64,000 bases of DNA from Tubulanus polymorphus (lineage: Eukaryota; Animalia; Nemertea). The position numbers were made by a program, and so were the translations under genes. The notes beneath the pieces are model-generated. The model did no database searches and was not told the DNA's origin. It saw nothing but the letters and a program-made list of their open reading frames with translations. Below, piece by piece: positions 42,868-48,788 of the stretch; position 1 is the first letter of the stretch; every line of letters begins with the position of its first letter. The stretch spans positions 30,987,432-31,051,431 of the forward strand of contig NC_134026.1 in the NCBI RefSeq assembly GCF_964204645.1. Direction: 5' to 3'.

Positions 42868-43245
42868 CACAAGCAGTATTGGACCTGGTGGCATGCTCCT
42901 TGCTGCACCAGCAGTATCGCACCAGGTGGGGTGCTCCATGCTGCACCATCAGTATCGCGCCAAGTGGCGTGCTCCATGCTGCACCAGCAGTATCGCACCA
43001 GGTGGGGTGCTCCATGCTGCACCAGCAGTATCGCGCCAAGTGGCGTGCTCCATGCTGCACCAGCAGTATCGCACCAGATAGCGTGCTCCTTGCTGCACCA
43101 GCAGTATCACACCAGATAGTGTGCTCCATGTTGCACCAGCAGTATCGCACCAGGTGGGGTGCTCCATGCTGCACCAGCAGTATCGCACCAGGTGGGTAGC
43201 TCCATGCTGCACCAGCAGTATCGCACCAGGTAGCTATCGTCCCAC
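42868..43245. repeat. ~39-41-bp tandem repeat x ~9 (cagcagtatcgcaccaggtggggtgctccatgctgcac) in TLCD1 intron 4
   Basis: Direct copies. Overlapping ORFs on both strands (42826-43255) are artefacts. Confidence 0.9.
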
Positions 43246-44630: not shown

Positions 44631-45207
44631 GCATACTCAGGTGTGTACATTCTGTTGTTGGTATATCGATAATATGTGTTCCGTCCGATAGGTGGCGGCC
44701 ATGAAGCTTCTGGCTTGTACATGTAGTGTCCACGATAATAAATAAACATCTCTGTGATTGTTATTACTAGTAAACATGCCATTTTTTCGTCGATTTTATT
44801 TTTCATGGATCTGAGGAAATCAACAGTCGCCAGCCAGTTTATCATCGAGAATTATTTCCCCTGACAAGAGACATTATGATTTTTAATTGAAAATGCAATA
44901 CAAACACTACAGACATAGACATTCATCGGTACACTTTCAAAAACTGATCGTCCACACTTCACTTGGGTTCAGAACATTCGATCAGGATGAGGACTTGCTG
45001 TGGCTGATTGCACAGGGAACGGTTGGCCCGGGTCTGAAAACTACACTGAAGTCCTCGCGACATTGTAACACGTTTAGTCAAATGAACGACCTCATTATTA
45101 TTGCAAATGCAACTATCGTCATTATTGTAATTGTAAATAACTAATAGATACAGAATTCAGCGCTGCCTGTATTATATATACTGCATTGAGTGGGATAGAT
45201 CAGCAAA

Positions 45208-45777
45208 ATGTCTACGATTTGGATTTTGATGTTTATGGCGCTTCATTTTAATGTCAACGATAGTGCCTACATCAAAAGAACTGACACCTGTCAGGATATA
45301 ACGATTCCGATGTGTAAAATAGGATTGTCATACAATCAAACAAAAATGCTGAATGTCTTCAATCGGAACCAAGAAGAAGCTCTTTGGGACTTGTTTTTTT
45401 GGCCGCGGATAAATTGCAGCGATTCCCTGAATGAATTTCTATGTGCACTATACGCACCGCCGTGTTCCTCGGAACCGCCGTGTAAATCGCTATGCGAAGA
45501 AGTTACAAAAGCGTGTGAAGCTGCGATGAATAGCCTGGGATTTCTTTGGCCACACAAACTGAGGTGCGAAAATTTCAAACGGGAAACATCTTGTATCGGA
45601 GCCCGAGGTATTGAAAAATCTCAAAATCACGGACAGCTGAGTGTGATGACATTGATGGATCTGGAAAATCGTGTTGATTTCCTCGAATCACGAATAGAAA
45701 ACAGTGAAACATTTCGCGATAAAGTAAAAAATTTAGAGCAGCGAATTGAAGCTCTTGAACGCATTTTATTGAAGTAA
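45208..45777 (+). CDS. Secreted Frizzled-type cysteine-rich-domain protein with C-terminal coiled coil, paralog A (189 aa, intronless)
   Basis: Signal peptide MSTIWILMFMALHF. Ten Cys in FZ-CRD spacing (C..IPMC...GLSYN.T.M.N...Q.EA...CS..L..FLC..YAPPC...PC.SLCE..C....WP..L.C..F). Heptad-rich C-terminus [41 protein letters not shown]. Confidence 0.8.
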   Translation: MSTIWILMFMALHFNVNDSAYIKRTDTCQDITIPMCKIGLSYNQTKMLNVFNRNQEEALWDLFFWPRINCSDSLNEFLCALYAPPCSSEPPCKSLCEEVTKACEAAMNSLGFLWPHKLRCENFKRETSCIGARGIEKSQNHGQLSVMTLMDLENRVDFLESRIENSETFRDKVKNLEQRIEALERILLK

Positions 45778-46230
45778 CTATTTTAAATAATTCTGTAAAG
45801 AAACGATCAAATTTCAACAACAACAAAGATATAATCTCTGCGGTTAAATGATCGTTCAACTCATAAATCTTTAATTTCTCTTTTTTGAGTCATTGAATAA
45901 AAGATCTTTCTTCAAGAACTTCCACAAAAATCTGGTGATCTAGTTTTTTTTCGATTTTTCCTTTCCAACAACTTACACGAACCGGAGTTCGGAGTGAATC
46001 TGCTGTAATTTGTGCGGATAGGGGTGAATTCTGTTCCCACAGTGTCAACAACAGTTTCGTCATTAATGTTGTCATATTTCCAGGGTAGCGGGTGATCTAA
46101 TTGCAGAATTTACTAATATTGCCTCCTCTAATGACGTATCAAATTGTATGGGTGACCTAAACCTTTATTGGCATTTGGTTAGACTGGTTGCTGGTAGTTG
46201 AAGCTGCGCTAAACCGAATAGATCCACAAA

Positions 46231-46893
46231 ATGTCTCCAATTTGGATTTTCACGTTTTTTATGTTTTATTTTGGCGTCGGTGAAAGTTTTTTCAGGACAA
46301 GTGAAAACTGTGAGAATATACAGATGCCACTGTGTAAAGTAGGATTGTCGTACAATCAAACAAGAATGCCGAATATGTTTCATCATCAAAACCAAGAAGA
46401 AGCAGGTCTGGAGTTACATCAGTTTTTTCCGTTGGTTAAGGTGAGATGCAGTCCGAATTTAAAGGAGTTTCTATGCGCTATGTACGCACCACCTTGTTCT
46501 TCTGAACCACCGTGTAAATCACTCTGTGAACTTGCAAGAAATGGTTGTGAAACCCTCATGAACAGATTCGGATTTCAATGGCCAGAAAAAATGAACTGTA
46601 ACCATTTTCGAGATAATGAACCTTGTATCAGTGGAACTGCGACTCCAGCACCGCCAACAACACAGGAGCCGTCGACTCCACCACCAACCGAGGAGCCCTC
46701 TACTCCAGCACCAACCGAGGAGCCTTTGACTCCTGTGACGTCGAATAAACCGTTGAGCGTGAAATTAATGGATTTAGAAAATCGCGTTGAATTCCTCGAA
46801 TCGCTGATAGAAAACAGTGAAACATTTCGCGATAAAGTGAAAAATTTAGAACAGCGAATTGAAGCTCTTGAACGTATTTTATTGAAGAATTGA
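46231..46893 (+). CDS. Secreted Frizzled-CRD plus Pro/Thr linker plus coiled-coil protein, paralog B (220 aa, intronless)
   Basis: Signal peptide [17 protein letters not shown]. Same 10-Cys [27 protein letters not shown] mucin-like linker. C-terminal 40 aa nearly identical to paralog A. Confidence 0.8.
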
Positions 46894-47384
46894 TTTATAA
46901 AATTTGAATGAACAATATGTTTATACATAATTATATATATATATACATACACCTAGTGAAAAATACACGTTTGATCCTTACTGATGTACATCATCGAGTT
47001 GGAAATTTCGGATATTCTATAATATTCTATAATATTTCATATCCATTAATTCTTTCTTAATTATTTTACTGTTTATCCATTCAGTTTTACCGAGGAGGTT
47101 TTTCCCATCTTCCTGGTTTTACCGTGGACAGTAAGAATCCAAACGAAAGATAAGAAAGAATGTACAGCCTAACGGCCAGTATGACTCATAACGGATTTGT
47201 GTTTAATCCCTGGAGAAGCCACGTTCATTCAAACTCTTGCCCTATAGTATATATTCCTTTTTTGTGACAGAAAAATAGCCACGGACTTGAAATTCAGAAT
47301 TGCTTAAAACAATTCCTGTCAATGGGCCTTATTAAGAGACTGTGCAATCAGAATGATAGCGGGGATTGTTAGTGAATAGTCACC

Positions 47385-47470
47385 ACACCCGACTGGTCAC
47401 CAGTCACCACACCTGACTGGTCACCAGTCACCACACCCGACTGGTCACCAGTCACCACACCTGACTGATC
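47385..47470. repeat. 26-bp tandem repeat x ~4 (gactggtcaccagtcaccacacc(c/t))
   Basis: Direct tandem copies. Confidence 0.8.
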
Positions 47471-47527
47471 ACCAGTCACAGCTACACATAACTGGAAACC
47501 ACACGCAGGCCAATAAACAACAACTCA

Positions 47528-47592
47528 TTGGTCTAGTGGTTAGAGCGTCGGACTTGTGCGCCGGTGATCACGAGTTCGCAACCCTACCTAGG
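47528..47592 (+). mobile_element. tRNA-derived SINE-like fragment / tRNA pseudogene (box A tagtggttagagc, box B gagttcgcaaccc)
   Basis: Pol III A and B boxes at tRNA-like spacing, but no acceptable cloverleaf (D and T stems unpaired). Confidence 0.4.
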
Positions 47593-47934
47593 TTTAGGGT
47601 TAGCTGGCGGATGAGGTAGAGATTACTTTTTGCGAATACACGTCCTTTCTGAAAGAAACTCCTCGAATAGAGACTAATCCTTAAAAGAGATATCTTGTTT
47701 TCCTTTTTATTAATCTCAGTAACGAATTGTAGCTGCCATCTGTGAAGAATACCGCTCCATTCAGAAAACATTTCTCGCGACAAGAACAAGTAATACACAT
47801 ATACAAATAACATAATATATAGGCTATTGGTCTTTATTTGATGATAATCTTTGGAAGAAATTACATTTATAAAAATAAAGATAAAACGATGACTTGATTG
47901 AACATACAGTGCATATTTATAGAACTAAGAACTA

Positions 47935-48140: not shown

Positions 48141-48667
48141 AAGCTTTACTTTTGGTAACAGCTTTACTTCATCACTCGCATTGTACCAATGACAAAGAGA
48201 TTGTACCTTTCCAGGATTCCAATTTCTAGCTGGTTAATAAAACAAATCTATTGTAGACCTACAGTACATAGACATAATCATTATACACAATATAAAATAA
48301 TACTTCATACATTAGCTGTAAACACGAATATCGCACAAATAATATAGTACAGTATAACATAAAGGCAATATAGAAATCCCAAACTAAGAATGAAAAGAGT
48401 CTAAAATGTCTCCATGAGTTTATTATTTAGTTCAGCACATCAACTTTATCTAAATCGCCATCTTCAAGAATAAGTGTTTTCACAACTAGCCGAATAGTCA
48501 TCTGCTGGAATACCAGAGTAATACAAGGAATTCAGCACTATCTCATGAAGAGTGCTAGTAGGATCTATCTCCAGGAAACATTGTGGACTTTTTAAATTCT
48601 TAGTATCGGATTATCATTTTTAACAACATGAACTCAGAGTGTTTTAAACAATATTACTCCGATAAAT

Positions 48668-48788
<121 letters not shown>

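Follow-up and report, generated by a model that had tools for sequence, protein, structure and literature searches.

Selection on a C-terminal helix and fast evolution of one CRD as the probable causes of uneven divergence between two tandem Frizzled-CRD genes of Tubulanus polymorphus

The nemertean (ribbon worm) Tubulanus polymorphus carries two adjoining tandem single-exon genes, here called A and B, which are old duplicates of each other and have diverged very unevenly along their length. This pattern is probably explained by selection on the C-terminal tail combined with fast evolution of the Frizzled CRD of A. Two processes are shown by the data: the C-terminal helix is held by very strong purifying selection at the protein level, and A's CRD evolved in an accelerated and one-sided way following the duplication. 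Each protein is composed of a signal peptide, a Frizzled-1/2/7-type CRD, a variable linker, and a C-terminal amphipathic heptad helix of ~44 residues.

Gene A (45208..45777 (+), 189 aa) is a single ORF encoding the signal peptide, the CRD, a short linker, and the C-terminal helix, and gene B (46231..46893 (+), 220 aa) is also a single ORF, encoding a Frizzled-CRD protein predicted to be secreted. B corresponds to XP_074642963.1 of T. polymorphus, named "frizzled-1-like" (100% match to P0001). The exact product of A was absent from the protein collection searched, and the current protein annotation appears to be without gene A. Fz is the single significant Pfam match in both proteins. Frizzled receptors (class F GPCRs) carry a 7TM domain after the CRD, whereas the seven-transmembrane Frizzled domain PF01534 was not found after the CRD of A or B, whose ORFs end at 189 and 220 aa; therefore, the NCBI name fits the CRD of B only. 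A Pfam search at E<=1 also revealed no NTR/netrin-like domain in either protein. The signal peptide was read directly as a hydrophobic N-terminus, with an AF2 helix at residues 3-14. Having a signal peptide and a single CRD, without 7TM and without a complete NTR, A and B are of the CRD-only secreted type. Rfam and tRNA scans of the 64-kb window (the whole stretch of DNA analysed, 64,000 nucleotides) gave no match.

The putative amphipathic helix, or coiled-coil module, occupies 45652..45774 (+) in A (41 codons) and 46765..46890 (+) in B (41 codons plus the terminal Asn). When the tails were aligned in register (A 45652-45774 vs B 46765-46887), 112/123 nt were identical (91.1%), and the 11 differences comprised 9 synonymous changes and 2 replacements (D/E and R/L), leaving 39/41 aa identical. 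The initial annotation had the tails differing by ~10 nt, mostly synonymous, which agrees with this count; the block that it described does exist, its coordinates deviating by 1 nt for A and by 7 nt for B. Three codons (LSV) upstream of the 41-codon tail also align, and the BLASTN match of the tail runs over 45647-45792 vs 46760-46904 with 87.7% identity.

The AF2 monomer model of B predicts a single helix at residues 176-219 (pLDDT 81-94), and this C-terminal helix is without cysteine. The hydrophobic moment of the tail peaks at 103-105 degrees per residue, and two heptad segments can be recognized, with V/I at position "a" and L at position "d" and a register shift near ENSETF. With a long predicted helix and a heptad (3.5-residue) hydrophobic periodicity, the tail qualifies as a predicted coiled coil. 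As the helices of A and B are nearly identical, they present no complementary (hetero-specific) pattern, and homo-oligomers explain the constraint on the tail equally well as heteromers; nothing specific speaks for the heteromeric coiled coil proposed at first.

That divergence between A and B is uneven, as had been proposed by eye, was confirmed far beyond chance (Fisher p=1.3e-7 for nucleotides and p=6.6e-7 for residues). The check by dN/dS over regions of the pairwise alignment gave the same answer, equal omega being rejected by a codon-model LRT (p=6.9e-10). NG86 estimates were dN 0.021 and dS 0.49 for the tail and dN 0.326 and dS 1.0 for the CRD, and by ML the tail had an omega of 0.05, as compared with 0.27 for the CRD and 0.34 for the remaining alignment. 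In the tail, omega=1 was rejected (p=1.6e-5), and replacements account for 2/11 changes though non-synonymous sites make up 80% of the total (binomial p=2.2e-5). Results clearly showed that the C-terminal helix is under strong purifying selection. Such a constraint would most likely reflect a role of the helix in oligomerisation or docking, with almost all of its residues being important.

Gene conversion or purifying selection had been offered from the start as the 2 possible causes of the near-identical tails. Purifying selection is shown by the omega of 0.05 and its p value, recent conversion is excluded by a tail dS of ~0.5, and conversion was not demonstrated. A recent or ongoing conversion keeping the tails identical, in a strict concerted evolution, would be in line with the nucleotide identity of 91% in the tail vs 68% in the CRD, but it is refuted by the synonymous differences: besides the 11/123 nt that differ, 7/38 conserved residues use different codons (including 5/13 six-fold codons), and the synonymous distance has a 95% profile interval of 2.9-11.2, which does not come near 0. 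Moreover, the similarity never passes the stop codon. We give this explanation virtually no chance.

Nucleotide-level conservation of the tail block for reasons other than the protein (e.g., a folded mRNA, a regulatory element, or an antisense gene) is very improbable. The antisense frame is indeed open in both A and B and synonymous divergence is somewhat low, but among the six frames conservation is highest in the sense frame, with 2 residue differences vs 4 in the open antisense frame, and 9/11 differences fall at sense third positions. The antisense-gene reading was rejected on this basis. RNA folding stability was not in excess (z = 0.70 and -0.81), so the RNA-structure reading was rejected as well, and the block had no Rfam match.

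The CRD lies at 45289..45585 (+) in A (Pfam Fz residues 28-126, E=3.7e-21) and at 46309..46617 (+) in B (residues 27-129, E=5.5e-30), scoring 76.2 and 104.6 bits against PF01392, whose gathering cut-off is 32.1 bits. B's is a conservative Fz1/2/7-type copy, and A's the fast-evolving one, with gaps within its HQFFPLVKV motif. In view of the Fz8-Wnt8 structure (4F0A), such gaps would be expected to alter how A binds Wnt or palmitoleate. The closest solved relatives of B are the CRDs of human FZD2, FZD7, and FZD1 (PDB 7n95, 5t44, 8j9n; E=5.6e-42), as against 6.5e-26 for sFRP3, which places this type of CRD nearer to the Fz1/2/7 class. With this class A and B share PF01392 and ten cysteines, the second of which is followed by an N-x-T sequon. 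The ten cysteines of A, B, and P0002 align with those of human FZD2 with canonical spacing, and 8/10 fall in columns that do not vary across the family alignment of four sequences; a 4-residue deletion is common to A, B, and P0002 and not found in FZD2.

Between A and B, the CRD proteins are identical at 60/110, 59/102, or 60/105 positions depending on the alignment (55-58%). The CRDs had been said to differ at about one third of residues, which has to be corrected to 42-45%, one third being the nucleotide figure (106/330 nt differ, 68% identity). Over the first three quarters of the coding sequences, from the start codon to the late CRD, BLASTN gave an identity of 69.5%. The CRD of B is identical to that of human FZD2 at 64/100 positions (64%) vs 57% to that of A. 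Tajima's relative-rate test with the metagenomic protein P0005 as outgroup counted 20 A-unique vs 3 B-unique CRD changes (p=5e-4), and with human FZD2 as outgroup 19 vs 6 (p=0.015). A's CRD has accelerated one-sidedly after the duplication, and this acceleration accounts for much of the contrast between tail and CRD. It could reflect either a relaxed constraint or a shifted ligand specificity; the fold of A is still constrained, considering that all ten cysteines are retained.

Synonymous sites also bear on an old partial gene conversion, or mosaic origin, by which A and B would later have been made alike at both ends of their coding sequence (the start region with the first ~60 codons, and the last ~45 codons) or, in a variant, a third paralogue would have donated the middle of one of the copies. 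According to this scenario, the duplication would be ancient, the middle being saturated and the flanks unalignable, and afterwards the N-terminal part would have drifted, with the tail held by purifying selection. We estimated 0.29 synonymous substitutions per codon for the tail and 0.84 for the CRD; the synonymous distance of the tail is ~2.6-fold below the rest (LRT p=0.016-0.027; stratified permutation p=0.03); the a-priori tail-vs-rest tests at p=0.027 and p=0.03 speak for old conversion. In a three-partition model both ends have equally low synonymous distances (t=6.0 and 5.7) and the middle is saturated (t=37; LRT p=2e-4, with the breakpoint chosen post hoc). This result and the low synonymous distance of the tail count against an account by selection only. 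In addition, the first 60 codons look neutral-like, with differences of 0.28/0.24/0.28 over codon positions, an omega of 0.75, and a divergence of only 26%, a flat pattern that is not easily explained by protein-level selection alone and that would agree with the ends having coalesced more recently. Old conversion is further favored by the 3' flank, in which no similarity between A and B was found (local score 11 vs a shuffle mean of 11.7, while a neutral divergence of 0.5 would predict ~85), and by the fact that, in other samples, proteins of the same architecture do not have unusually conserved helices.

The conserved start region lies at 45190..45231 (+) in A and 46213..46254 (+) in B, spanning -18 to +24 in both. 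The motif around the ATG (ATAGATCnnCAAAATGTCTnCnATTTGGATTTT) is present as initially noted; positions -40..-1 of A vs B gave a local alignment with p=0.01 against shuffles, and upstream of the conserved start region no further A/B similarity was found.

On the other side, the breakpoints of the old tracts were picked post hoc, and an unbiased scan for heterogeneity of synonymous differences gave p=0.20; its statistic with stratified permutation approximates a GENECONV-type run test on synonymous sites. Half of the synonymous excess of the middle is at CpG third positions (9/17 mid-CRD synonymous codon differences), and without CpG sites the contrast falls to p=0.13 between mid-CRD and tail and to p=0.06 between the middle and both ends. 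GC3 is 0.29 in the tail and 0.35-0.45 elsewhere; being lower in the tail, it gives no sign of a GC-biased conversion. On one side the tract would have to end at most ~15 nt from the stop codon and on the other precisely where the linker is, in a block of just ~135 nt, and two sequences are too few to reveal phylogenetic incongruence. The limits of the A/B similarity, at the stop codon and the linker, coincide with domain boundaries. Taken together, the signal of an older event is weak and varies with the model, and we consider old conversion possible but unlikely. Selection on the tail with fast evolution of A's CRD is the explanation that we prefer; an old conversion over the gene ends may add to the lower synonymous divergence of the tail, but it would be unneeded for the pattern.

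A large protein search with B recovered only two T. polymorphus proteins, and the tail was found in no other protein of that search. A further T. polymorphus paralogue, XP_074641452.1, has a PT linker. A metagenome scan with the tail peptide gave 600 pattern matches, 0 of which were confirmed as relatives, and DNA look-ups for B and P0002 returned no record. A profile search over 1.84 billion representatives yielded P0005, P0100, and P0104, uncharacterised proteins of the same architecture from three different metagenome samples (ENA). They are single ORFs with the part order of A and B, namely signal peptide, CRD, PT-rich linker, and C-terminal helical region; their CRDs are 54-58% identical to that of B, and their helix ends in …L(R/K)(R/K)N. 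Unlike in the Tubulanus proteins, their helix is preceded by a Cys-x-Cys motif. We also considered their helices as homologues of the Tubulanus helix, which was not demonstrable (hhalign probability 1.6%), so that the comparison is one of architecture only. Among the three, the helix is 45-60% identical, no better than the CRD (59-63%), and therefore the extreme constraint on the tail is not general to this architecture. The P0005 locus contained no second CRD gene.

Among known systems, the sFRPs (sFRP1/2/5, sFRP3/4, and Sizzled) are extracellular Wnt binders and antagonists. Like A and B they combine a signal peptide with a Frizzled CRD, and they are secreted, as is predicted for A and B, but they carry a C-terminal NTR, in place of which A and B have the cysteine-free coiled-coil tail. 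A literature search for a CRD-plus-coiled-coil protein or for the A/B pair itself returned relatives in kind only, namely the fzCRD genes of the annelid Platynereis dumerilii and the Frizzled module of collagen XVIII. The fzCRD genes are lineage specific, their secreted products being made up of a Frizzled CRD behind a signal peptide and of a C-terminal region that varies (Bastin et al. 2015, PMC4669655); they are thought to be born by CRD-only duplication and to bind Wnt extracellularly, and a soluble FZD4 splice variant is mentioned alongside them (PMC4669655). One of them, FzCRD-1, groups with sFRP3/4 and has a possible NTR remnant (PMC4669655). The likeness of A and B to the fzCRD proteins (signal peptide, CRD, and variable C-terminus) is one of architecture, and no coiled coil is described for the latter in PMC4669655, while A and B have a coiled-coil tail. 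The Frizzled module of collagen XVIII is reported to inhibit Wnt/beta-catenin signalling (PMC2270346); as proposed for A and B, it is a Frizzled CRD on an oligomerising non-receptor extracellular scaffold, with the difference that the collagen triple helix oligomerises a very large protein, whereas A and B have a short C-terminal coiled coil. A CRD-plus-coiled-coil protein is mildly unusual, and the divergence pattern of the pair is ordinary.

The coiled coil may gather several CRDs on flexible stalks, giving a multivalent secreted decoy or carrier that would bind Wnt or lipid. A and B could co-assemble if co-expressed, as their tails are nearly identical. A rather improbable extension of this idea would make the helix a common assembly module, held nearly identical in A and B by selection for co-assembly (possibly with conversion), so that CRDs of differing ligand preference (B conservative, A divergent, and perhaps others) are mixed into hetero-oligomers. 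If that were true, the pair would form a secreted Wnt-binding complex of combinatorial composition, and Wnt modulation of this sort is undescribed for sFRPs or fzCRD proteins; if the coil simply oligomerises CRDs, the result would be an extracellular protein that binds Wnt in a multivalent manner and differs from the known sFRPs. The family is of modest interest for Wnt biology, as a receptor-free Frizzled-1/2/7-type CRD joined to a mucin-like stalk and a coiled coil. As a gene pair, A and B are a textbook case of duplicate-gene evolution, with domain-specific constraint and asymmetric divergence, and they teach that a short near-identical block between paralogues should not be taken for gene conversion until synonymous sites are checked.

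The linkers differ between the copies. That of A (45604..45651 (+), ~16 aa) is short, not PT-rich, and alignable to that of B only at the terminal LSV. The linker of B (46630..46764 (+), ~45 aa) is PT-rich and predicted to be disordered, with AF2 pLDDT <50 at residues 139-173, and is a PT-rich repeat of O-glycosylation type. The linker shows no constraint and evolves through indels and repeat expansion; in B, Tandem Repeats Finder detected a tandem repeat at 46664-46733, with a period of 27 nt and 2.6 copies.

Two uninterrupted open reading frames on the forward strand, gene A (45208-45777, 189 aa) and gene B (46231-46893, 220 aa), lie head-to-tail with 453 nt between them, and both are intact genes encoding a protein made of a Frizzled cysteine-rich domain (CRD) and a C-terminal helix. 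Each contains one Pfam Fz domain (76.2 bits for A and 104.6 bits for B, with a curated cut-off of 32.1 bits) and no other significant Pfam domain, and by tblastn they are the only Fz copies in the window. B is 100% identical to XP_074642963.1, a "frizzled-1-like" protein of Tubulanus polymorphus. The exact A product is absent from a collection of 15 billion proteins, and A was not among the protein matches to B, though its expected score there is about E=1e-60; the NCBI annotation of T. polymorphus seems to lack it. A third paralogue, P0002 (XP_074641452.1, 167 aa), maps to the same chromosome outside the window, with a CRD 88-89% identical to that of B; its model lacks four residues (MNRF) and stops inside the PT-rich linker without the C-terminal tail, which may reflect either truncation of the gene or an error in the model.

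The order of parts is the same in A and B: a hydrophobic N-terminus, probably a signal peptide, then the CRD, a linker and the C-terminal segment. The CRD is a standard Frizzled CRD, a known domain, with all ten cysteines and an N-Q-T sequon after the second cysteine; the nearest solved structures are the CRDs of human FZD2, FZD7 and FZD1 (E=5.6e-42 for B, 1.9e-26 for A), while those of sFRP3 and Sizzled are far more distant. The linker, unconstrained and repeat-expanding, measures about 16 residues in A and about 45 in B, where it is PT-rich and predicted to be disordered (pLDDT <50). The roughly 30 additional residues of B are due to expansion of a tandem repeat (46664-46733, period 27 nt, 2.6 copies, 86% matches) encoding EEPSTP(A/P)PT units, a repeat type shared by P0002. 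In the AlphaFold2 prediction, B residues 176-219 form one unbroken helix (pLDDT 81-94). Its hydrophobic moment is maximal at 103-105 degrees per residue, corresponding to heptad periodicity. Its heptads fall into two segments, in which V/I occupy "a" and L occupies "d", and the register shifts near ENSETF.

The initial annotation had described nearly identical tails next to diverged CRDs, and this uneven divergence was upheld. The last 41 codons align in register over 123 nt (45652-45774 in A, 46765-46887 in B, forward strand) and differ at 11 of 123 nt, 9 synonymous and 2 replacing a residue (D/E, R/L), leaving 39 of 41 residues identical, close to the "~10 nt, mostly synonymous" originally counted. 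The CRDs retain 68% identity in DNA and 55-58% in protein, so that the reported difference at one third of residues was too low and corresponds to nucleotides instead. Divergence is not uniform along the alignment, as revealed by Fisher's test (p=1.3e-7 for nucleotides, p=6.6e-7 for residues) and by a codon-model likelihood-ratio test (LRT) of one versus two omega values (38.05, p=6.9e-10).

This contrast is asymmetric, a point missed in the initial annotation. With P0005, a metagenome protein of the same architecture, as outgroup, the CRD of A carries 20 unique residues versus 3 in B (p=5e-4), and with human FZD2 as outgroup 19 versus 6 (p=0.015). The CRD of B is 64% identical to human FZD2, 58% to P0005 and 57-58% to A. 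The near-invariant HQFFPLVKV motif of the Frizzled CRD family, present in B at 46420-46450, is gapped in A (45395-45420), which reads LF-FWP--RIN and lacks some of the motif's residues. We take this stretch to line the lipid-binding groove, as in the Fz8-Wnt8 complex (PDB 4F0A), and its loss in the fast-evolving copy suggests that A may have an altered ligand groove. The fold of A is still constrained, since all ten cysteines are kept. Considering that the CRD of A is accelerated while both copies have the same tail, a large part of the CRD/tail contrast is due to the rapid change of one copy in its putative ligand-binding domain.

Purifying selection and gene conversion make different predictions at synonymous sites. 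We used Nei-Gojobori dN/dS and a pairwise codon model (F3x4) whose rate was left unnormalised, making synonymous distances comparable across partitions. Nei-Gojobori gave dN 0.021 and dS 0.49 for the tail, and 0.326 and 1.0 for the CRD. The codon model put omega at 0.05 for the tail, compared with 0.27-0.34 outside it, and rejected omega=1 for the tail (p=1.6e-5). Non-synonymous sites make up 80% of sites, yet just 2 of the 11 changes replaced a residue (p=2.2e-5). Therefore, the encoded C-terminal helix is under strong purifying selection, one of the two readings first proposed, whatever other events took place.

The other reading, gene conversion, did not stand for a recent event: 7 of 38 conserved tail residues use different codons (5 of 13 among six-fold codons), and the 95% profile interval of the tail synonymous distance (2.9-11.2 model units) is far from zero. 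An older exchange between A and B involving both gene ends, which we consider unlikely, meets evidence in both directions. Synonymous distance in the tail is 2.6-fold lower than in the rest (5.8 versus 14.9, LRT p=0.027), and a permutation stratified by codon degeneracy gave 7 differing tail codons versus 11.1 expected (p=0.03); however, GC3 of the tail is 0.29, below the 0.35-0.45 found elsewhere, and an unbiased scan statistic across all segments was not significant (p=0.20). A three-partition model (LRT p=2e-4, with breakpoints picked after inspecting the data) assigned distances of 6.0 to codons 1-60, 5.7 to the tail and a saturated 37 to the middle and C-terminal CRD. Yet of the 17 codons differing synonymously in the middle, 9 do so at third positions forming a CpG in one copy (CpG counts in that part are 15 in A and 7 in B), and upon removal of such positions the comparison gives p=0.13 for middle versus tail and p=0.06 for middle versus both ends.

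At the 5' end, the conservation noted around the ATG is real and extends from -18 to +24, with no A/B similarity upstream of -18. The start regions and first ~60 codons (45190-45390 and 46213-46410) have a synonymous divergence as low as that of the tail, and replacement changes there are almost as common as synonymous ones. The three codon positions differ to a similar extent (0.28/0.24/0.28, omega 0.75), resembling neutral divergence within less time; either homogenisation of a second segment or nucleotide-level constraint near the start could account for this stretch. At the 3' end, the tail block is just ~135 nt long and its similarity is bounded by the stop codon and the linker, the limits of the constrained domain; the 300 nt following the stop score 11 versus 11.7 when shuffled, where a neutral divergence of 0.5 would give about 85. 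The pattern thus does not require an old exchange, nor can two sequences demonstrate one, and purifying selection on the helix is the part of the earlier interpretation that is shown.

Other explanations of the tail block were rejected. Its folding stability is not unusual (z = 0.70 and -0.81), arguing against an RNA structure, and Rfam found no family in the window. An antisense gene was also discarded, as the frame is open but less conserved than the sense one (4 versus 2 residue differences); open antisense frames are common opposite coiled-coil codons. The CpG observed/expected ratio is 1.95 and 2.52 in the two tails (45652-45774 and 46765-46887) versus 0.82 in the window, these CpGs being mostly kept in both copies and mostly located at sites whose substitution would replace a residue.

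Among 1.84 billion representatives, a profile search matched 3354 Fz-domain proteins. Many, including many of P0014-P0049, are very large proteins with 4-15 tandem CRDs separated by linkers, such as one of 1834 aa with 13 matches and another of 6305 aa with 15; P0105 combines a CRD and a coiled coil with what appears by eye to be a terminal C-type lectin domain. Three proteins, P0005, P0100 and P0104, each a single ORF from a separate metagenome sample, resemble A and B in having a signal peptide, a CRD, a PT-rich linker like that of B and a C-terminal helix, whose similarity to the Tubulanus helix is not significant (hhalign probability 1.6%). Among the three, helix identity (45-60%) does not exceed CRD identity (59-63%). 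Therefore, extreme tail conservation is not a general rule here, which keeps both conversion and co-assembly alive as ideas for the Tubulanus pair. The tail was not found in other nemerteans in the protein collections and DNA records searched.

Unlike Frizzled receptors and sFRPs, A and B have neither a 7TM nor an NTR domain. They fit a loosely defined, lineage-specific class of CRD-only secreted Frizzled-related proteins, differing from it by a Fz1/2/7-type CRD joined to a predicted C-terminal coiled coil, an arrangement of which our literature search found no description. As an evolutionary pattern, constraint specific to one domain combined with asymmetric divergence of paralogues is ordinary.

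A and B would be secreted, their helix forming a parallel coiled coil that joins several CRDs through flexible stalks, which are probably O-glycosylated. The complex might bind Wnt-type lipidated ligands outside the cell as a decoy or carrier, a role proposed for sFRPs and for the fzCRD proteins of Platynereis, which are CRD-only (PMC4669655). The initial annotation had suggested a heteromeric coiled coil. Being almost identical, the two helices have no hetero-specific pattern, and homo-oligomers are enough to account for the constraint; A and B might also mix in one oligomer, given co-expression.

The gene pair is flanked by satellite-like repeats at 42868-43231 (38 nt, 9.6 copies), 47378-47479 (24 nt, 4.2 copies) and 48666-48786, the latter being (ATG)40. 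Between them, a stretch at ~47520-47600, called by neither ARAGORN nor Rfam, looks tRNA-derived and may be a SINE fragment.
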